Assembly: GCA_963849325.1 (NCBI GenBank)
Contig: CAWKHF010000001.1
Location: 192,001 to 256,000 of the forward strand
Reading direction: 5' to 3'
DNA from: an uncultured Planctomycetota bacterium
GTDB taxonomy: Bacteria > Planctomycetota > Planctomycetia > Gemmatales > Gemmataceae
Length of the DNA stretch: 64,000 bases
Below the pieces are notes generated by a model that saw nothing but the letters and a program-made list of their open reading frames with translations, had not been told where the DNA came from and searched no databases. Shown in pieces: positions 16,872 to 26,303 of this stretch. The first letter of the stretch is position 1, and every line of letters begins with the position of its first letter. A program made the translations under genes and the position numbers.

Positions 16872-18557
16872 TTGTCAACAACAACCCCGCGGCGTGTGTA
16901 CAAGGGAAGAAGCATCCGGACGCCGGTGCTGCTCTGTCTGCTGGGGTTGTTCGCTTTGCCGGCCTCTCTTTCCGCTCAGACGCTCACCACGGACGAGTTG
17001 CGCAAGCAAGCCGTCCTCCTCGAACAGCGCCACGACTGGCTCGAAGCGTGCCGCGTCTACGACGAGCTGTTGCGCAAGGACCGGACGCGCGAGGACGTCC
17101 GGCAAGCGTATCAGCGCTGCCTGCGTCGCTATCACATCGTCCATCGCCATCGAGACAAGGTCTACCGTCAAGCCCTGACGCGCGTGACGGCGGTGCAAGC
17201 CCTGGAGATGTACGAGCAGGTGCTCGACACCGTTGCCCGCGCCTACGTCGATCGGCACAGGACCAGCGCGGCGGCGCTGTTCCGGCAAGGAGTGGAAGAA
17301 TTGCTCCTGGCCTTCGACGAGACCGTCTTCCGCGACGAATACTTTCCCGGCATCCCGCGCGAGACGTTCGACGCCTTCAAGACGAAGCTGGAGGAGTGGC
17401 GCGGCCGCAAGATCGCCAGCCGTTCCGACGCCCGCGCCCAGGTGATGGCGGTTGGACGGACGGCGCAGCAGATGGGCTTCGGACCTCGGCCCCTGCTGCT
17501 GACGGTCATCGCCCTGGAATTTCTCAGCGGCGCCTGCAACGCCCTGGATGAATACACCTTCTTCCTGACGCCCGGCCGTTACCGCGAAGTGCAGGCGGCA
17601 TTGCGTGGCCGGTTGGTCTCTATCGGCGTCGATCTGGCCGTGGTCGAGGGACATCTGGAAATCGCTCGCGTCTATCCGCGCAGCCCGGCCTGGGAACAGG
17701 GACTCATGCTGCACGACCGCATCCTGCGGATCGACGGCCAATCCACCGCAACGCTGCCGGCCGAGGTCGCCGCCGAACGACTGCGCGGCAAGGCCGGCAG
17801 TGTCGTCAAGCTGGAAGTCTTCTCGGTGGCCCAGATGATGACGCGGCCAACCATTGAGCTGACGCGCCGGCCCGTGATCGTGCCCAGCGTCGAGTTCGAG
17901 CTGAAGCCCGTCCTGGTGGACACCGGAGACGGTCTGGAGACGGTCGTTCCCATCGGCCGCTTGCGCATCCTCTACTTCCAGGAATCGACGCTGCAAGAAG
18001 TGAAGGAAGCGTTGGCGGCACTGCAAACCGACGGTATGCGGATGCTGGTCCTCGACCTGCGCGGCAACCCCGGCGGCCTGTTCAAGTCGGCCGTGCAGGT
18101 GGCCGAACTGTTTCTGCCCGAAGGCATCATCGTGGTGTCGCAGTCGCACATTCTGCCCAGGGACAAACGGCTGAGCGGCCCGATCCGAGTGGAGAGCATG
18201 AATCCGCTGTTGCTGCCGATGGTGGTGGTCATCGACGGCGATACCGCTAGCTCCGCCGAGGTGCTGGCCGGGGCGCTCAAGGACAACGGTCGGGCCAAGC
18301 TGATCGGGCAAACGACGTTCGGCAAAGGCTCGATCCAGTGCATTATCCCGCTGGACAAGCCGCCCTTCGACAAGATGCCGGGCGGCATCCGCATCACGGT
18401 GGCCAAGCTGCTGTCGCCGAGTTGGCAGCCGTACAGCGGCCAGGGTGTTCGGCCGAATGTGCCTTCCAGTTCCGATGGCGATGCGGTGCTGGCCGAGGCG
18501 CAGCAAGTCCTGCTGGACATGCTCAAGACCTTGCAGCCGATGGCGATACCGCACTGA
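16872..18557 (+). CDS. S41 family carboxyl-terminal protease with PDZ domain
   Basis: 'LDLRGNPGG', 'TASSAEVLAGALKD', 'TTFGKGSIQ'. Confidence 0.9.
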   Translation: MSTTTPRRVYKGRSIRTPVLLCLLGLFALPASLSAQTLTTDELRKQAVLLEQRHDWLEACRVYDELLRKDRTREDVRQAYQRCLRRYHIVHRHRDKVYRQALTRVTAVQALEMYEQVLDTVARAYVDRHRTSAAALFRQGVEELLLAFDETVFRDEYFPGIPRETFDAFKTKLEEWRGRKIASRSDARAQVMAVGRTAQQMGFGPRPLLLTVIALEFLSGACNALDEYTFFLTPGRYREVQAALRGRLVSIGVDLAVVEGHLEIARVYPRSPAWEQGLMLHDRILRIDGQSTATLPAEVAAERLRGKAGSVVKLEVFSVAQMMTRPTIELTRRPVIVPSVEFELKPVLVDTGDGLETVVPIGRLRILYFQESTLQEVKEALAALQTDGMRMLVLDLRGNPGGLFKSAVQVAELFLPEGIIVVSQSHILPRDKRLSGPIRVESMNPLLLPMVVVIDGDTASSAEVLAGALKDNGRAKLIGQTTFGKGSIQCIIPLDKPPFDKMPGGIRITVAKLLSPSWQPYSGQGVRPNVPSSSDGDAVLAEAQQVLLDMLKTLQPMAIPH

Positions 18558-18572
18558 TCGGCATATCCTCCG

Positions 18573-19442
18573 TTGAGACCTGTCGTGCGCCCTCTCTGGT
18601 CCCAGACAATCTCGGCCCCGCTGCGCGGTCTGAGCCTGGCCCGTGAGCGCGATGCGGTGCTGGCCTGGGACGGTCGCGACGATCTGTTCCTGTTCAACCA
18701 CGCCGGCCGACTCCAGGGTCAATGTTCCTCTCCCGCGGTCATCGCGGCGGCCTGCGGTGCCGAGGATGGCAGCGCCTACGCCGTCGGCGGTTCGCGCGAG
18801 CCGGTCGTGTGCTGGCTGGGTCCGGATCTGTCGCCGCGCTGGCAGCGCCCGCTGCATCGCGGCGCGACGGCCATCGCCCTGGAGCCACTGGGCCAGTACG
18901 TCGCCGTGGCCGACGCCGATGGCACGCTGTACCTGTTCGACCGCGACGGCCAAACGCGGTGGCGGGCGACGACGCCGCGGCCGTTGTCCCATCTCGCCTT
19001 CGTGCCGGAGAAACCCCTGCTCGTCGGCGCCGCCGATTTCGGGCTGGTCGTCTGTTTTGGCTCGGCCGGCGAATGCCTGTGGCGCGACGGGTTGGTCGCG
19101 CACGTCGGCTCCCTGGCAGTCCGCGGCGACGGCGATGGCCTCCTCCTGGCCTGCTTTGGCGATGGTCTGTATCGCTACCGCGCGGCCGGCCCGCCGCCCC
19201 AGCAGATCCTTCTTGACGCGGCCTGTTCTCGCGCGGCCGTCTCCTATGCCGGCGACCGTGTGCTCACAGCGGAGCGGGACAACCGCGTCTGTCTGCGTGA
19301 CGGCGATGGAACTCGACGCGACCCCATCACCCTCGATGCCTCTCCCGTCGCTCTCGCCCTAGGGGCGCTGAGGCGATCAGGGAGTCATCGGCCTAGCCGA
19401 CGGGACGATCCTGCGTTTCGACCTGCGCCCGAGCAGCGGTGA
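18573..19442 (+). CDS. WD40/beta-propeller-like protein
   Basis: Repeated propeller-like strands ('GQYVAVADADGTLYLFD'); directly downstream of the protease. Confidence 0.6.
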   Translation: MRPVVRPLWSQTISAPLRGLSLARERDAVLAWDGRDDLFLFNHAGRLQGQCSSPAVIAAACGAEDGSAYAVGGSREPVVCWLGPDLSPRWQRPLHRGATAIALEPLGQYVAVADADGTLYLFDRDGQTRWRATTPRPLSHLAFVPEKPLLVGAADFGLVVCFGSAGECLWRDGLVAHVGSLAVRGDGDGLLLACFGDGLYRYRAAGPPPQQILLDAACSRAAVSYAGDRVLTAERDNRVCLRDGDGTRRDPITLDASPVALALGALRRSGSHRPSRRDDPAFRPAPEQR

Positions 19443-19740
19443 AAAACTGCTCTTGCTCCGAGCGGACGAGTTTTGTAAAACCGTCGATACGATAAGGAGT
19501 GTGGGTAGGGAATCCCGCTCCACCCTCGCTGAGGGTGAAGGTACGGCAGGAGGCTGAACACTTCAGATAACTTGCCTTCCTCGCAGATCCGCACCTCCTG
19601 AGTTTTCAACCCATCGCCCGGTCCCATTCAACGCAGCATGGGCAAGTTGTTTCGCGCCCCTCATGGTTGGGGGGAACGGCGGCTCGCCTGGGATGTGCGC
19701 CGCCGCAATGGTCTCCATCCACCGGAAAGGACACCCGCGC

Positions 19741-20520
19741 ATGCTCGTACTTTCACGCCGACTCGGACAGAAGATCGTTTTTCCCGGCACGCAGACGACC
19801 GTGCAAATCGTTTCCCTAAAACCGGGCGTCGTTCGCCTGGGGATCGACGCCCCCGAACACGTCGCCGTCTACCGCGACGAATTGCTGGGGCGAAACGACT
19901 TCCAGGAACGGACGCCCCTCGTGGACGAGTCAACCGCGCAGCACGTGGCCGACCAATTGCTGCACATCCTCAACAACCGGCTCAATACCAGTACGGTCGG
20001 GTTGGCCCTGCTTCGCCGGCAACTGGATCTGGGTCTCACCCGCGACATGCTTTCCACGCTCGACAAGATCGAGGACAACCTCAAGGGGTTGCAGCAGCGT
20101 GTCGAAGGGCTTGACGCGGATCGGCCTCGTCCCGCCAGGCCGGCGCGACGGTGCGCGCTCGTGGTCGAAGACGACCGCAACGAGTGTGAACTGCTGGCCG
20201 GCTTCCTGCGCCTGGCCGGACTCGACGTTCACACGGCCGGCGACGGCGCCGACGCCCTCGATTATCTCAACGAACAGGGCAAGCCGGACGTGGTCTTGCT
20301 CGACATGATGCTGCCGCGCTGCGACGGACCCACGACCGTTCGCAACATCCGTCGTAACCCCGCCTATGACGGCATGCGCATCTTCGGCGTCACCGGAGCC
20401 GCCGTCGAGCAATTCGGCCTCGCCGAAGGGCCGGGCGGCATCGATCGCTGGTTCCGCAAGCCCCTCAACCCCGAGGCGCTGCTGCGCGCGCTGGATCAAA
20501 ACCTCTCCACGGTGCCCTAG
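19741..20520 (+). CDS. CsrA-domain / response-regulator receiver fusion
   Basis: N-terminal 'MLVLSRRLGQKIVF...VRLGIDAPEHVAVYRDEL' (CsrA); C-terminal REC 'LVVEDD...VVLLDMMLP...VTG...RKP'. Confidence 0.85.
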   Translation: MLVLSRRLGQKIVFPGTQTTVQIVSLKPGVVRLGIDAPEHVAVYRDELLGRNDFQERTPLVDESTAQHVADQLLHILNNRLNTSTVGLALLRRQLDLGLTRDMLSTLDKIEDNLKGLQQRVEGLDADRPRPARPARRCALVVEDDRNECELLAGFLRLAGLDVHTAGDGADALDYLNEQGKPDVVLLDMMLPRCDGPTTVRNIRRNPAYDGMRIFGVTGAAVEQFGLAEGPGGIDRWFRKPLNPEALLRALDQNLSTVP

Positions 20521-20527
20521 ACTTTTG

Positions 20528-20593
20528 GGCGAACGGCCGGCGTTAGCCGGCTGGTAGAGGCGGCAACCAGCCGGCTAACGCCGGCCGTTCGCC
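20528..20593. repeat. REP-like palindrome, family B
   Basis: ggcgaacggccggcgttagccggctggt ... accagccggctaacgccggccgttcgcc. Confidence 0.88.
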
Positions 20594-20791
20594 ATGATTA
20601 GCGGACCCTACCGAGCCGCGACCGCGAGGGAGCGAAATTCCCCCTTTCCCTGACGGTCGCGGCCCTGGCCGATGTGATCTTTTCCATCTACATTTCTCGA
20701 TACACTCCCGGCCGGCACGTCTTACCAAGCCGGTTCGCCGAGTGCAAAAGGCCACCCACCTTGGGAACAGAAGTTGCTCTCATGTTCGACC

Positions 20792-21250
20792 ATGATGAAG
20801 CAATCGAACCAGCTGTTTGGCTTGGCACCGGAGCCTTTCAATCTGCCGCAGAGAAAGGCGAACGGGAAGGAACCCTCCTCGCCGCCGGACGCGCGGGGAC
20901 CGCTGCGCCGGGTCGCCCCGGACCTTTTCCGGACCCTGGCGGCTCGCTACGGCGAACTGCTGGAAAGGACCGTGGACCAGCGCGTGTATGCGCGGGAGTC
21001 CGCGCTGACGGAAGGCTTGCGGGAAATGAGCGTGCGGCTGGGCCGTCTCCAGGCGGCCCCCCGCGACGTGATCGACCTGCATAGCCACGCCCTGGAGGTC
21101 CAGTTGGCCGCGGCGCCGGCACGACTGGCGGCCGTCTACGTTGAGGAAGGACGCTTGCTCGTGCTCGAACTCATGGGGCACTTGCTGTCGTATTATCGAA
21201 GGGAGTGCCTTCAGGCCGGACGGTCCTCCGAGCGGTCCCTTCGGAGGTGA
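20792..21250 (+). CDS. KaiA-like (KaiA3-type C-terminal domain) protein; start uncertain
   Basis: 'APRDVIDLHSHAL...EEGRLLVLELMGHLLSYYRRE' resembles the KaiA C-terminal helices (IIEIH...RLTLIDILAHLCEMYRR); directly upstream of kaiB and kaiC. Confidence 0.72.
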   Translation: MMKQSNQLFGLAPEPFNLPQRKANGKEPSSPPDARGPLRRVAPDLFRTLAARYGELLERTVDQRVYARESALTEGLREMSVRLGRLQAAPRDVIDLHSHALEVQLAAAPARLAAVYVEEGRLLVLELMGHLLSYYRRECLQAGRSSERSLRR

Positions 21251-21265
21251 ATCGAGGCTTCGATC

Positions 21266-21592
21266 ATGGCTAAGTATCTTCTCAAGCTCTACGTCACCGG
21301 CCAGACGCCGCGCTCCCATCGCGCCATCGAAAACCTGCGCCGCCTCTGCGACGAGGAACTGCACGGCCAATATGAGATGCACGTCATCGACGTGCTGGAA
21401 CGGCCGCAGCTGGCCGAGGATGAGAAGATCCTGGCCACGCCCACCGTGGTCAAGGAATTGCCGGCGCCGATCCGCCGTATCATCGGCGACCTGTCCGACG
21501 CCGAAAAAGTGCTCCTCGGACTGGATTTACAACGGTGCAGCCTCGCGGGGAACGGTTCATGCGGAAAGGAGGAAAGCATTGACCTGGCATAA
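21266..21592 (+). CDS. kaiB: Circadian clock protein KaiB
   Basis: '[14 protein letters not shown]...[21 protein letters not shown]...[19 protein letters not shown]'. Confidence 0.96.
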
Positions 21593-23156
21593 CCATCACT
21601 CCGCTGTCGCCAAGCTCCCGACGGAAGTCCCCGGCTTCGACCTGATCTCTTACGGCGGTTTGCCCGAGGGGCGTTCCACTCTCCTGTCCGGCACGTCCGG
21701 CAGCGCCAAGACCGTGCTCGCCTGCCAGTTCCTGGCCGAGGGCATTCGCCGCCGCGGCGAGTCGGGCGTCTTTGTCACCTTCGAGGAAAGTCCGCAAGCC
21801 ATCCGCAAGAACATGGAAGGCTTCAACTGGGGCATCCCTCGTTGGGAACAGGAGGGCAAATGGTCGTTTGTTGATGTGTCGCCGCACCCCGGTCAGGAGA
21901 CGATCATCAGCGGCTCCTTCGACCTCAACGCTCTGCTGGTGCGCATCGAGAACGCCGTGCGCAAGACGGGCGCCCGCCGCATGTCGCTGGATTCGCTGGG
22001 AGGCGTCTTCGCCCAACTCGGCGAATCGACCACCGTGCGCAATGAGCTGTTCCGCATCGTTTCCGCCCTCAAGGAGATGGGCGTCACCTCGATCATCACC
22101 GCCGAACGCACCGAGGAATATGGGCAAGTGTCGCGCTACGGCATCGAGGAGTTCGTCACCGATAACGTGGTCATCCTGCGCAACGGCCTGGAACAGGAGA
22201 AACGGCGACGCACCATCGAGATCCTCAAGTTCCGCGGCACTCCCCATCAGAAAGGCGAGTTTCCCTTCACCGTCAGTCCCGACCAGGGTGTCGTGGTCAT
22301 TCCATTGTCGGCCATCGAGCTGAAGCAGAAGTCGTCGGACCTGCGCATCGCTTCGGGCATCCCGGAGCTGGACCGCATGTGCGGCGGCGGTTTTTTCCGC
22401 GACTCGATCGTGCTGCTGTCCGGGGCGACAGGCACCGGCAAGACGCTGGTGACGACCTCGTTCATCGCCGGCGGCGCGGCCACCGGCGAACGCACCCTGT
22501 TCTTCGCCTTCGAGGAAAGCCGCGATCAACTGTTCCGCAACGCCAGCGGCTGGGGCATCGATTTCGAGAAGATGGAGGCGGCCGGCAAGCTCAAGGTCGT
22601 GTGCGAGTATCCCGAGACCGGCAGCCTGGAAGACCACCTGATCGCCATGAAAGCGGTGGTGGACGAATTTCAGCCGCAGCGCATCGCCATCGACAGCTTG
22701 TCGGCCCTGGAGCGCGTGGCCACGGTCAAGAGCTTCCGCGAGTTCGCCATCGCCCTGACCTCGTACATCAAGGACAAGAACATCGCCGGCCTGTTCACGG
22801 CCACCTCGTCGAGCCTGCTGGGCGGCTCGTCGGTGACCGAGACGCACATCTCGACCATCACCGACTCCATCATCCTGTTGCGTTACGTCGAGATGCACGG
22901 CGAGATGCGGCGCGGCGTCACGGTGCTGAAGATGCGCGGCTCCAGTCACGAGAAGAACATCCGCGAGTTCACCATTGACGGCAAAGGCATGCACATCGGC
23001 AAACCGTTCCGCAATGTTTCGGGCATTCTCTCAGGCCATTTCACCCATCTGCCGCCGGGCGAGATCGAGCGCCTGGGCGAGCTGTTCAAGGACGATGGAG
23101 ACCCCAATGCCCATGCTCGGGACATCCAGGTCGGGCGCGATCATCCCCTGGGGTGA
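21579..23156 (+). CDS. kaiC: Circadian clock kinase KaiC, double domain; probable TTG start
   Basis: CI 'GTSGSAKT','FEES'; CII 'GATGTGKT','FEESR'; phosphosite region 'THISTITD'; SD aaggagg before TTG at 21579. Confidence 0.96.
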
Positions 23157-23183
23157 CGCCGTGCCCGGTCCGGGGAGTTCGTC

Positions 23184-24675
23184 ATGCTGGACGATTACAA
23201 ACTGCGCACTGGCCGCCAGCGAGGCGCGCTTTCGCACCCTGATCGAGAAGATGGCCGACGGCGTCATCGTGGTACGCGATGCGGGCGTGATCTGTTACGT
23301 CAATCCGGCCGCCGAGGCGCTGCTGGGCCGTCGCGCCGACGAGTTGGTCGGCGCCCCGTTTGGCCAGCCGGTGGCGTCGGGCGAAACCGTGGAAATCGAC
23401 CTCTGCCCCGTGCCTCGTCGTTCCGCCTCGACGGAGGGCGTGTCCGGCCCTCTTCATCTACCGCTGCGCGTGGCGGAGATGCGCGTCGTCGAGATCGACT
23501 GGGATGGACAGCCGGCGCTACTGGCGACCCTGCGTGACATCAGCGAACGCAAGGAGGCCCTGCGCCGCTGCGATGAGTTCCTCGCCATGCTCGCCCACGA
23601 GCTGCGCAATCCGTTGGCCCCGATCCTCACCGCCGCCCAACTGCTGCGGCAGAAGGGTCTGCCCGCCGACCAGCGGGAACACTCCTGCGCCATCATCGAG
23701 CGGCAGGGCCGGCACATGGCTCGCTTGCTGGATGACCTGCTCGACCTGTCGCGCGTGACGTACGGCAAGATCGAGCTGCGCAAGCAAGTCGTGGACCTGG
23801 GCACCATCCTGAGCGATGCCATCCACGGCAGTCGATCCCTGATCGATGGACGGCAGCATCAGCTGGCCCTTTCGCTGCCCCCGGTGCCGCTGCGCGTCGA
23901 GGCCGACCCGACGCGATTGGGGCAGGTGATGGTGAATCTGCTCAACAACGCGGCCAAGTACACCGAGCCGGGCGGCCGCATCGAGCTGAGTCTTCAGCGA
24001 GACGGCACGCAGGCGGTCGTGCGCGTCAAGGACTCGGGGATGGGCATTCCTCCGTCCGCGCTGGCGAGTATCTTCGAGCCGTTTGCCCAGCTTAATCCGT
24101 CGCTAGATCGTGCGCAGGGTGGACTGGGGATTGGCCTGACGCTGGTTCGTCGGCTGGTGGAACTGCACGGCGGCACGATCGCCGCCCATAGTGACGGCCT
24201 GGGCCGAGGCAGTGAGTTCGTGGTCCGCTTGCGGCTCGATCCTCGATCTCTTACAGAGGAACCTCCTCGGTCCCAACCGCCCTTCGTCCCTCGCCGTGTC
24301 CTGCTCATCGAGGACAACCAGGATGGCCGCGAGATGCTGACCGGGCTGCTGCGCCTATGGGGACATCAGGTCGAGGAGGCCGACGATGGGCCGGGCGGCC
24401 TGACCGCCATCCGCCGGCAACCTCCCGATGTGGCCCTGGTGGACATCGGCCTGCCGGACCTGGACGGCTACGAACTGGCTCGCCAGGTACGCGCCGCGCC
24501 GGGCGGTGATCGGGTCGTGCTCATTGCCGTGACAGGCTACGGTCAACCGCAGGACCGACGCCGCGCCGTCGAAGCCGGTTTCGACGACCATCTGGTCAAG
24601 CCGGTGGATCTGGACAAGCTGATGCGACTCCTCCAGGATTTGCCGCGCGCCGCTCCCGGCGAACGGCCGGCGTAA
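23184..24675 (+). CDS. Hybrid sensor histidine kinase PAS-HisKA-HATPase-REC (frameshift near start)
   Basis: 'YVNPAAE' PAS, 'LAHELRNPL', 'NLLNNAAKYT', 'GGLGIGL', REC 'LVDIGLP...KP'. Confidence 0.92.
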
Positions 24676-24778
24676 GCCGGCTGGTGGGCGAGACTTGCCG
24701 CGTGCCGCTCCCGGCGAACGGCCGGCGTAAGCCGGCTGGTGGGCGAGACTACCAGCCGGCTTACGCCGGCCGTTCGCC
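24641..24778. repeat. Family B palindrome with a 55-bp tandem duplication of its left arm and flank
   Basis: 24641..24695 and 24696..24750 differ at one base; inverted arm at 24751..24778. Confidence 0.88.
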
Positions 24779-24878
24779 TCTGTTACGCTTCAGGACTGGA
24801 CTTTCCCGGTGGTTGACTTTTGGGTATGCGGGACGGTGGCATGAGGGACATCGTCCCCTCGGCGCCGGGAGAGAACCC

Positions 24879-26303
24879 ATGTCGGATGAAGAGGGGCCAT
24901 TTCCGAGGAATAAAGGGGAGACTCCAGGGCGGCAGCAAGGGATGGCCTGGTGCTGTCTGCCCCTGCTGGTTGCGTCGGTGGGGTTGAGTGCGTGTGGAGT
25001 GGTGCGGTCCCAGGCAGCCGACATTGATCCGGTCGAACGTCTTCGCCACGCCTTGCAAGCTACGTATCCCAATCCGGCGGCGCGGGATCGTCAGGTCAAG
25101 GAATGCCTGGCCGAACTGCGTTCGCTCTCCGACCTCCAACGCGCCGCCGTGCTGGTGGAGTGGTGCGAATCCTGCCCCGGCGAATCGAGCGCGGCCGTGG
25201 ATCGGGCCAACCAGGAAGCGCTCCTCGAAGCGCTGACGGTTGCCGTGCGCGGCGTGTTGCGTCCGAGAGGTCCAGCGGCGGCCGCGACGATCGATTGGAT
25301 CGCGCGGACGGCCGAACAAGCCCGCGCCAGCGGCGAACCCCTTCCTCTCTTCCATCGCTTCGGGCCGGAACTGGCCGACGTGGTGATCCAGGGTCCGTCG
25401 TCGCTTCGCGCCGCGGCCGCCCGTACACTGGGACAGATCGAACCAAGTGTGTACGTCGCCGTGCCGGCCCTCGAAGAACTGCTCCGCGCCGGCGAGGCGG
25501 AGTTGCGTCTGGCCGCGGCCGACGGACTCGCTCATCTGATGCAAAACGCCCTGCAAGCGCTCGGCGGCGCCGGAAGCCAGCGCCCCGCCCCGCGCGGCGA
25601 ATTGGTCCTGGTGGCCGGCAGCATCCTGCCAGCGGTGCATCACGGCCTGGACGACGACCGACTCGAGGTGCGCCGCCGCTGCCTGGAAACGATCGGCCTC
25701 GCCGCCGTGGCCCTGTCCCGTCTGATCGAGGACGCGAACCCGCCGGACGGACCCTCCTTCGGACAGACATCGCCCGCGGGTCGGCGGCTGGAATCGGAGC
25801 GGGAAGAGTTGCGCCCGCTGCTTGTGGCCCTCCGCGATCAGGGACCGATCCTCGCGCGCTGCGTCCGCGACAACGATGTCGAGGTGCGCGTGCTGGCGCA
25901 CAAGGCGCTGGAGGAAATGGGGCACGCTCGCGGATGCTGGGCGCGGCGATGCGCCACGGTGAATGGACCGGAGGAAGACGCGCTGGGCGACGTGCTCCGG
26001 GAAGCGGTACACGCATTGGCGGCGGCGCTGGCGCATCCCGACCTGCGCGTGCGGCGCAGCGCCCTGGACGCCCTAGAGATGATGGGTCCGCTGGCGCTGC
26101 CGGCGCTGCCGGCCCTGGCTCGCGTCCTGCACGATCCGGATCGTTTTCTCCGCTGGTCGGCCGTGCGCACACTGGGCAAGCTCGGTCCGACGGCTCGGGA
26201 TGCGGTCGATGAGCTACGCTTGACCCTGCAAGATCCCGACACCGACGTCCGCCGTGCGGCCGGGACGGTGCTGCTCCACATCGGATCGTCCTCCCCTCCG
26301 TAA
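24879..26303 (+). CDS. HEAT-repeat protein
   Basis: Repeats such as 'LRAAAARTLGQI', 'VRRSALDALEMMGP', 'LRWSAVRTLGKLGP'. Confidence 0.8.
   Translation: MSDEEGPFPRNKGETPGRQQGMAWCCLPLLVASVGLSACGVVRSQAADIDPVERLRHALQATYPNPAARDRQVKECLAELRSLSDLQRAAVLVEWCESCPGESSAAVDRANQEALLEALTVAVRGVLRPRGPAAAATIDWIARTAEQARASGEPLPLFHRFGPELADVVIQGPSSLRAAAARTLGQIEPSVYVAVPALEELLRAGEAELRLAAADGLAHLMQNALQALGGAGSQRPAPRGELVLVAGSILPAVHHGLDDDRLEVRRRCLETIGLAAVALSRLIEDANPPDGPSFGQTSPAGRRLESEREELRPLLVALRDQGPILARCVRDNDVEVRVLAHKALEEMGHARGCWARRCATVNGPEEDALGDVLREAVHALAAALAHPDLRVRRSALDALEMMGPLALPALPALARVLHDPDRFLRWSAVRTLGKLGPTARDAVDELRLTLQDPDTDVRRAAGTVLLHIGSSSPP

Follow-up and report, generated by a model that had tools for sequence, protein, structure and literature searches.

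Does the short open reading frame (ORF) that immediately precedes the clock genes kaiB and kaiC in a planctomycete-like genome encode a KaiA protein that carries no input domain? The question is raised by positions 20,792 to 21,250 of a 64,000-nucleotide (nt) stretch of DNA from a Gemmataceae-like planctomycete, hereafter the window, in which an earlier note had proposed a stand-alone KaiA-like output domain. KaiA is the component that turns the KaiBC hourglass into a free-running oscillator, and for many years cyanobacteria were regarded as the only organisms to have it. The description of KaiA3 in 2024 extended KaiA to a second lineage, as a receiver-fused protein in a few genera (Koebler et al., Nat Commun 2024, PMC11372060). 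According to that paper, KaiA3 (Sll0485 of Synechocystis sp. PCC 6803, 299 amino acids [aa]) consists of a receiver (REC) domain and a KaiA-like C-terminal domain, its gene is located upstream of kaiB3 and usually of kaiC3, and the protein interacts with KaiC3, promotes KaiC3 phosphorylation and oscillates in vitro with KaiB3 (PMC11372060). The receiver fusion has been described in cyanobacteria and in five further genera, and Supplementary Data S1 holds Sll0485 together with orthologs from Cyanothece, Microcystis, Roseiflexus, Chloroflexus, Rhodospirillum and Bradyrhizobium (PMC11372060). We found that the protein encoded in the window, P0001, is kin to KaiA3 at the level of sequence and to canonical KaiA at the level of fold. 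It is likely to be a stand-alone KaiA3-type domain, i.e., the C-terminal bundle free of any REC, PAS, GAF or MEDS sensor, and a predicted activator of KaiC.

The ORF of about 150 codons on which the earlier note was based is present as described, with 152 codons and with both quoted strings, PRDVIDLHSHAL and EEGRLLVLELMGHLLSYYRRE, in its translation; use of an alternative in-frame start, TTG at 20774, would lengthen P0001 to 158 aa (for the coordinates of all features see Table 1). It is a real gene and not a chance ORF. A word-indexed search with P0001 returned 17 relatives, the nearest of which is a 152-aa 'hypothetical protein' from a Gemmataceae metagenome-assembled genome (MAG) with 66% identity (E 1e-41), an annotation that agrees with what had been anticipated for automated pipelines. 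Comparison with the ortholog from the Gemmataceae locus L001 gave a ratio of nonsynonymous to synonymous substitution rates (dN/dS) of 0.37 for the whole gene and of 0.28 for the domain. All residues that are invariant in an alignment of 18 sequences (A1) are kept in P0001 (G84, R91, D92, E119, R121, L125, E126, L127, M128, G129, H130, Y135 and R136), and the conserved columns of a second alignment, A2, made of nine short members, are likewise intact.

Membership in the KaiA3 family emerges from profile searches and from individual motifs. The A2 profile, covering residues 37-138, matches 1,762 representative clusters at E<=1e-3, of which 1,463 remain at E<=1e-10. The 150 family matches listed are proteins of 123-848 aa in which the domain is C-terminal or nearly so. 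P0146, a REC-fused representative of 292 aa that closely resembles cyanobacterial KaiA3 orthologs, shares 39% identity with P0001 over 103 aa (E 2e-26). In Supplementary Data S1, the C-terminal halves of Sll0485 and its orthologs carry the same series of motifs as the A alignments, namely VTAxxFG, PLRxxxPxxF, LGFxKAxPRD(V/I)(I/V)xIH and EGRLxVLELMG(Y/H)LxS(F/Y)YR. P0001 was filed as KaiA3-type because of this match to the Sll0485 motif series and because of its alignment with P0146 as a proxy; the P0146 alignment, the family profile and the common motifs all point to homology between its C-terminal domain and that of Sll0485. Neither P0146 nor P0067 is itself one of the listed orthologs, since their N-termini gave 0 matches in the KaiA3 supplement.

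Established sequence models describe this domain poorly. A Pfam scan of P0001 returned zero families at E<=1, KaiA (PF07688) and RsbU_N included, and among 18 relatives RsbU_N remained without a match at E<=10; Response_reg was matched by 7 of these 18. None of the 46 longer homologs (0/46) has Pfam KaiA among its precomputed annotations, so that the Pfam KaiA model does not see this family. The 'minimal KaiA' of the earlier note thus holds as far as a KaiA-like domain on its own is meant, and requires correction as to type, which is that of the Sll0485 family and not that of canonical KaiA. Two further matches were dismissed as noise, NCBIfam FliH (E 0.06; 13 bits versus a cutoff of 235) and erythropoietin, which was all that phmmer found with P0001 among PDB sequences (E 1.1). 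The A1 profile was uninformative for the domain when run against the PDB, because all listed matches were REC domains of fused members.

The fold of the domain was predicted with AlphaFold2, both for full-length P0001 (18 sequences; predicted local distance difference test [pLDDT] 86.2; helices 43-66, 72-85, 90-107 and 110-151) and for residues 37-152 (76 sequences; pLDDT 95.9; predicted template modelling score 0.85). Both models are four-helix bundles. When they were compared with the PDB using Foldseek, a check that the earlier note had suggested, C-terminal domains of KaiA headed both lists (1q6a, 1v2z, 5jwr, 5n8y, 1r8j, 4g86, 5c5e and 1r5q), with probabilities of 0.84-0.99 (the best 0.98-0.99) and template modelling (TM) scores of 0.44-0.74. 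The predicted fold is that of the KaiA C-terminal four-helix bundle, at E values of 0.096 or above. Similarly, Pfam KaiA clusters rank first in a protein atlas (0.94, 0.94 and 0.91), where a Planctomycetota cluster automatically named 'KaiA C-terminal domain-containing protein' also appears (0.86).

The genomic position of the gene adds a further line of information. Four genes on the plus strand form a cluster in which the kaiA-like gene comes first and is followed by kaiB, kaiC and a gene for a PAS hybrid histidine kinase; the gene is thus located directly upstream of kaiB and kaiC, an assignment made at the kaiB/kaiC level. kaiB starts 16 nt past the assembled stop of the kaiA-like gene, whereas the TTG start of kaiC, preceded by AGGAGGA, overlaps the 3' end of kaiB. 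The start of the kinase gene is uncertain (ATGs at 23095, 23107 and 23113; similarity to relatives from near 23206). To see this arrangement in a wider frame, 33 loci were collected from species-representative genomes with one peptide pattern, L[LT][VI]LELMGH, which excludes the cyanobacterial 'LELMGY' forms because it requires LELMGH. These loci come from Chloroflexota, Planctomycetota, Acidobacteriota, Spirochaetota, Verrucomicrobiota, Myxococcota and unclassified bacteria, and tblastn with the window proteins revealed the order kaiA-like, kaiB, kaiC on one strand in 28 of the 33. In L019 the domain is followed by kaiB and then by the contig end, and in L013 the contig ends at the match. A similar histidine kinase or PAS gene is found downstream of kaiC in many loci, e.g., with 71% identity in L001. 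The C-terminal tail of KaiC, GILSG...P.E[IL][ED]RL..[ML]F, and the phosphosite stretch H-I-S-T-x-T-D (HISTITD in the KaiC of the window; S425/T426) are conserved (23 KaiCs read, 17 aligned). We also would like to record, as an observation apart, that the Walker A motif of the KaiC CI domain (near residues 38-45) is GTSGSAKT, in which Ala takes the place of the second conserved Gly of GxxxxGKT; G38, G41, S42, K44 and T45 are invariant in 17/17 aligned KaiCs, the family consensus being GTAGSAKT, and the P-loop of the second domain is canonical (GATGTGKT).

What sets P0001 apart within the family is what precedes the bundle. Among 21 locus ORFs scanned with Pfam, the N-terminal part contains REC alone in 6, REC plus PAS in 2, one or two PAS domains in 9 and no match in 4; L011, cut by the contig end, L015, with a REC-like stretch just upstream in a broken assembly, and L026, with a 105-aa N-terminus free of Pfam matches, belong to the last group, and a short form like that of the window was present in L001 only. 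The 46 longer homologs comprise 31 with REC, 10 with PAS and no REC, 3 with GAF (one of them with MEDS) and 2 with nothing. P0001 has no Response_reg match, its short Pro-rich N-terminus, already pointed out in the earlier note, is Pro/Ser/Gly-rich and modelled as disordered, and a tblastn search of positions 19000-21400 with 21 sensor-fused relatives at E<=10 picked up the domain itself and, weakly, the REC of the upstream neighbour, but revealed no remains of a REC or PAS domain in any of the frames of 20521-20791. The independent Gemmataceae assembly of L001 contains the same short gene next to a different upstream neighbour. In a quick maximum-likelihood tree of 100 domain sequences, which is poorly resolved (49 of 97 branches drawn open), the neighbours of the window sequence are all short forms, P0002 (SH-aLRT 92), P0031 and P0066 (85) and, more weakly, P0003 (68), and the group does not include the PAS-fused sequences from Isosphaeraceae. 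The bare form is genuine, and Pfam, AlphaFold2, Foldseek and tblastn agree on the stand-alone four-helix domain lacking a receiver or pseudo-receiver that the earlier note had put forward. Its remark that no REC motifs occur upstream is correct for this gene and does not extend to the neighbouring gene, which encodes a fusion of CsrA and REC.

Other sensor combinations were also noted in the family. GAF or MEDS plus GAF fusions of the KaiA3-type domain are represented by P0038, P0043, P0200 and P0185. In Chloroflexota loci (L008, L009, L012, L014, L016, L020, L023, L027, L028 and others), the domain is joined to one or two PAS domains located some 450-800 nt upstream of it; identity between these PAS domains and that of the window's histidine kinase is 36-46%, the same PAS sensor module thus being seen on either the KaiA-like protein or the kinase.

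The N-terminus itself holds a clue to the origin of the short form. P0001, its L001 counterpart (MMKQAHNLL) and P0031 (MTDQAHNLFG) have in common a start of the form M(M/T)(K/D)Q(S/A)(N/H)(Q/N)L(F/L)(G/N), which in these short forms (L001 5983-6110) is followed by a Pro/Ser/Gly-rich stretch of 25-35 aa and then by PLRxxxPxxF. The linker consensus of the family is VTAxxFGxxPLRxxxPxxF. Judging from these strings, the start looks like a remnant of the linker motif VTAxxFG, split from the remainder by a low-complexity insert. Such a remnant suggests descent from a sensor-fused ancestor, whose N-terminal domain was probably lost to give the short form.

The 3' end of the gene requires separate comment. 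The five nearest short relatives (P0002, P0003, P0004, P0031 and P0066) end in a conserved tail, ANRGxxH[EG] (ANEGTTNE in P0066), whereas P0001 as assembled ends in SSERSLRR. The alignment of the window with L001 shows a 19-nt gap near 21235. Since the tail of the clade is encoded in the other frame at 21244-21273, the assembled C-terminus probably reflects a 1-nt indel, real or due to an assembly error, at about 21230-21243. The four-helix domain is unaffected, because it lies upstream of the frameshift.

Several of our observations speak against P0001 being a KaiA3-type activator of KaiC. Pfam KaiA is unmatched by P0001 and 18 relatives even at E<=10; with the A2 profile, the KaiA chains 1v2z and 1q6a in the PDB score no better than E 0.64 and 0.8 and are outranked by noise from SHERP and apolipoprotein, and the larger A6 profile, made of 23 short members, finds no KaiA there at E<=10. 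The best Foldseek match has an E value of 0.096, none being <=0.001. The connection with Sll0485 was made through motifs compared by eye in the supplement and through the REC-fused proxy P0146, and no example of a KaiA3-type domain active without a receiver was found in the literature covered. As for gene order, L005 and L033 have neither kaiB nor kaiC near the domain, and L015 has kaiC only, in a locus with frame breaks. In addition, the dN/dS of 0.28-0.37 exceeds the values of 0.12 for kaiB and 0.09 for kaiC obtained against the same locus, L001, and the 3' end is frameshifted relative to relatives, which could mean decay. Under such an account, the ORF would be the remnant of a kaiA3-like gene that was once fused to a sensor and has since lost this N-terminal domain and suffered the 3' frameshift, would exert no action on KaiC and would leave a KaiBC-only timer. 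It draws on the conserved tail being out of frame, on a dN/dS about three times those of kaiB and kaiC, and on the prevalence of sensor domains in the family (17/21 locus ORFs scanned and 44/46 longer homologs). However, this dN/dS is well below 1, every conserved residue of A1 and A2 is retained, the frameshift lies wholly downstream of the four-helix domain and may be no more than a 1-nt assembly error, and L001 as well as a small clade of short proteins also have the short form; we consider decay unlikely.

Assembly errors could also be invoked on a larger scale, in that the assembly might have collapsed or frameshifted an N-terminal REC or PAS domain of the true gene. The indel-like 3' frameshift indicates that small errors may be present, and kaiC, kaiB or the kaiA-like gene is broken into several frames in the MAG loci L015 (6549-8092), L029 (6526-8037) and L032 (6001-6547), breaks that look like assembly indel errors and not biology. 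Against a missing sensor stand the tblastn result for 20521-20791, a spacer that contains a perfect 28-bp hairpin, formed by a repeated element found again at the downstream end of the cluster, the same short gene placed after an endonuclease-III-like gene in the independent L001 assembly, and the MMKQ..L start common to L001 and P0031, all of which makes such an artefact highly improbable. More a matter of function is whether P0001 could be a partner-switching adaptor of the RsbU-N type that recruits the kinase or some other non-KaiC partner, as the RsbU N-domain recruits RsbT. The fold is common to both, the RsbU N-domain being found in both Foldseek lists (ranks 22-50, probability 0.5-0.6; 2j6y 0.60, 1w53 0.51) and an RsbU_N cluster in the protein atlas (0.87), and a histidine kinase is encoded in the same cluster. 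Yet KaiA chains rank above RsbU in both searches, P0001 has neither a Pfam RsbU_N match nor a PP2C domain, the family as a whole is linked to kaiB-kaiC (28/33 loci), and its prototype KaiA3 acts on KaiC3 (Koebler et al., 2024, PMC11372060). This role appears quite improbable, if slightly less so than the artefact.

If P0001 is, as we favor, a stand-alone KaiA3-type activator, its mode of action can be sketched from those of KaiA3 and KaiA. In canonical KaiA, the C-terminal domain on its own is enough to stimulate KaiC. P0001 would dimerize via its long last helix (EGRLLVLELMGHLLSYYR), and the dimer would bind the conserved C-terminal tail and A-loop region of the co-encoded KaiC, thereby promoting KaiC autophosphorylation at the conserved Ser-Thr pair. 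Phosphorylated KaiC would then be bound by KaiB, sequestering the KaiA-like protein, and the downstream PAS-HisKA-REC kinase would read out the state of the system. As the protein has no sensor domain, its activity would probably be constitutive or depend on its abundance, with environmental signals acting at another point, KaiC itself or the PAS kinase. The input in trans that the earlier note envisaged is conceivable but gained no support, no homologue of the upstream CsrA-REC gene having been detected in the related loci. The PAS kinase may carry the sensing role here, because PAS domains fused to the KaiA-like protein in Chloroflexota are up to about 46% identical to its own.

Table 1. Positions of the kai cluster, its parts and its surroundings in the window.
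Feature	Position	Strand	Remarks
S41 peptidase gene	16872-18557	+	
Beta-propeller protein gene	18573-19442	+	
CsrA-domain + REC-domain fusion gene	19735..20520	+	CsrA 5e-14, Response_reg 1.4e-17; outside the system as far as shown
Perfect 28-bp inverted repeat	20525..20596		Two copies of the 24-nt element (20531+, 20567-); spacer upstream of the kaiA-like gene
KaiA3-type stand-alone gene (P0001)	20792..21250	+	152 aa; ATG ATG at 20792, assembled stop TGA 21248-21250
Pro/Ser/Gly-rich N-terminus	20792..20899	+	Starts MMKQSNQLFG; modelled disordered, residues about 1-37, pLDDT 56-62
KaiA3-type four-helix-bundle domain	20900..21205	+	Residues 37-138; conserved columns, models, Foldseek, P0146 alignment
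Out-of-frame clade tail	21244..21273	+	EVNRGFDHG and stop; stop overlapping kaiB ATG exactly as in L001
kaiB	21266..21592	+	108 aa; Pfam KaiB 2e-28; NF006798 122 bits vs cutoff 110
kaiC	21579..23156	+	525 aa, two domains; NF006799 706 bits vs cutoff 408
Hybrid histidine kinase gene	22975..24675	+	PAS-HisKA-HATPase-REC (Pfam domains)
Three further 24-nt element copies	24661..24775		Directly past the histidine kinase gene

The gene for the CsrA-REC protein closes with its own stop and is separated from the kaiA-like gene by a spacer of 271 nt. The search of the 33 related loci detected no homologue, the matches in 5 of them (5/33) being to REC domains only, and in L001 its place is taken by the endonuclease-III-like gene. 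Its own stop, the intervening hairpin and the lack of a detected homologue in the 33 loci, L001 among them, led us to reject it as a split-off receiver of the KaiA-like protein; the similarity of its receiver to the RECs of KaiA3-type proteins is weak, patchy and generic (best 34% identity, E 6e-13, several without a match in tblastn). The fusion of CsrA with a C-terminal receiver is an unusual architecture in its own right, and would place a post-transcriptional regulator under phosphorylation control.

The spacer contains the 28-bp inverted repeat, whose hairpin has a predicted energy of -69.2 kcal/mol (z -9.9) and probably acts as a terminator or insulator. It is built from a GC-rich element of 24 nt, GAACGGCCGGCGT[T/A]AGCCGGCTGG, present in 5 copies in the 64 kb window against 0 expected by chance; all 5 copies lie, in inverted or direct arrays, exactly where the four-gene kai cluster begins and ends. 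The element was found in 0 of the 33 related loci. An Rfam scan of 19000-25500 yielded no family above its gathering score, with sub-threshold hairpin look-alikes on the palindrome only, and a scan for promoter and terminator consensus sequences yielded nothing exceeding the shuffled expectation.

In this planctomycete-like genome, a KaiA3-type domain standing by itself heads an intact cluster of kaiB, kaiC and kinase genes, and it belongs to a domain family that is missed by Pfam KaiA and annotated as 'hypothetical'. The locus offers a minimal set of three proteins (152, 108 and 525 aa) for testing KaiA-dependent oscillation in non-phototrophic bacteria. The breadth and modularity of the family are a more interesting lead than the bare form. 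The KaiA3-type domain could tentatively be seen as a widespread modular activator of KaiC, carried by REC, PAS, GAF, MEDS or no sensor, located near kaiBC in at least six phyla and giving complete, possibly self-sustained KaiABC-type oscillators in non-phototrophs such as Gemmataceae, although we hold this wider proposal with considerable doubt. Under it, the bare Gemmataceae protein would be the minimal natural form, and the sensor would be dispensable for the core function of KaiA in the second KaiA lineage too. A literature search of limited reach found no receiver-less KaiA3-type protein in Gemmataceae, which is weak evidence of its being unpublished, and a dedicated search for KaiC and KaiB in Gemmata and Planctomycetota, also of limited reach, gave no KaiC paper. 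A canonical kaiABC operon has been reported from a 'Planctomycetaceae bacterium' MAG (Dvornyk and Mei, 2021, PMC8113500).

Among known systems, the closest is KaiA3 itself. P0001 resembles Sll0485 in belonging to the same C-terminal domain family, with motifs along the whole domain, in the position of its gene directly upstream of kaiB and kaiC and in its predicted KaiA-like four-helix bundle. Differently from Sll0485, P0001 has no N-terminal NarL-type receiver (152 versus 299 aa), and its host is a Gemmataceae-like planctomycete, outside the cyanobacteria and the five other genera listed for KaiA3 (PMC11372060). It also has the Pro/Ser/Gly-rich insert after the linker-motif remnant, and His for Tyr in LELMG(H/Y)L. 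The RsbU N-terminal domain of Bacillus subtilis (1W53, 2J6Y) is more distant: it is likewise a four-helix domain of the KaiA/RsbU type, ranked lower, whereas P0001 is devoid of a PP2C phosphatase domain and of a match to RsbU_N (PF08673), and its context is kaiBC. With canonical KaiA of Synechococcus elongatus and Thermosynechococcus (1R8J, 1Q6A, 1V2Z, 5C5E, 5JWR), P0001 shares the C-terminal fold (probability 0.96-0.99, TM 0.44-0.65); unlike these proteins, it has no pseudo-receiver, and the sequence similarity is below HMMER significance. The last helix of P0001 follows the pattern R-L-x-x-L-[DE]-x-[IM]-[AG]-H-L-x-x-x-Y-R, which we take, pairing it by eye with the KaiA sequence, to parallel R262, I269, A270, L272, Y276 and R277 of KaiA. 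These are residues of the KaiA dimer interface, according to Dvornyk and Mei (2021, PMC8113500).

The earlier note had started from the premise that KaiA proteins carry an N-terminal pseudo-receiver or receiver domain, a premise that is incomplete, as Nostocales are known to have single-domain canonical KaiA (sdKaiA; PDB 1R5Q) and Prochlorococcus has truncated forms (Dvornyk and Mei, 2021, PMC8113500). It is the receiver-less KaiA3-type protein that constitutes a new architecture variant. Like the single-domain KaiA of Nostoc/Anabaena sp. PCC 7120 (1R5Q), P0001 is the four-helix domain alone, encoded upstream of kaiB-kaiC, and the two structures superpose with the best target-normalised TM of 0.74 and a root-mean-square deviation of 3.0 A over 92 columns, at only 17% identity. 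Unlike P0001, however, the 1R5Q protein is a cyanobacterial member of Pfam KaiA (PF07688).

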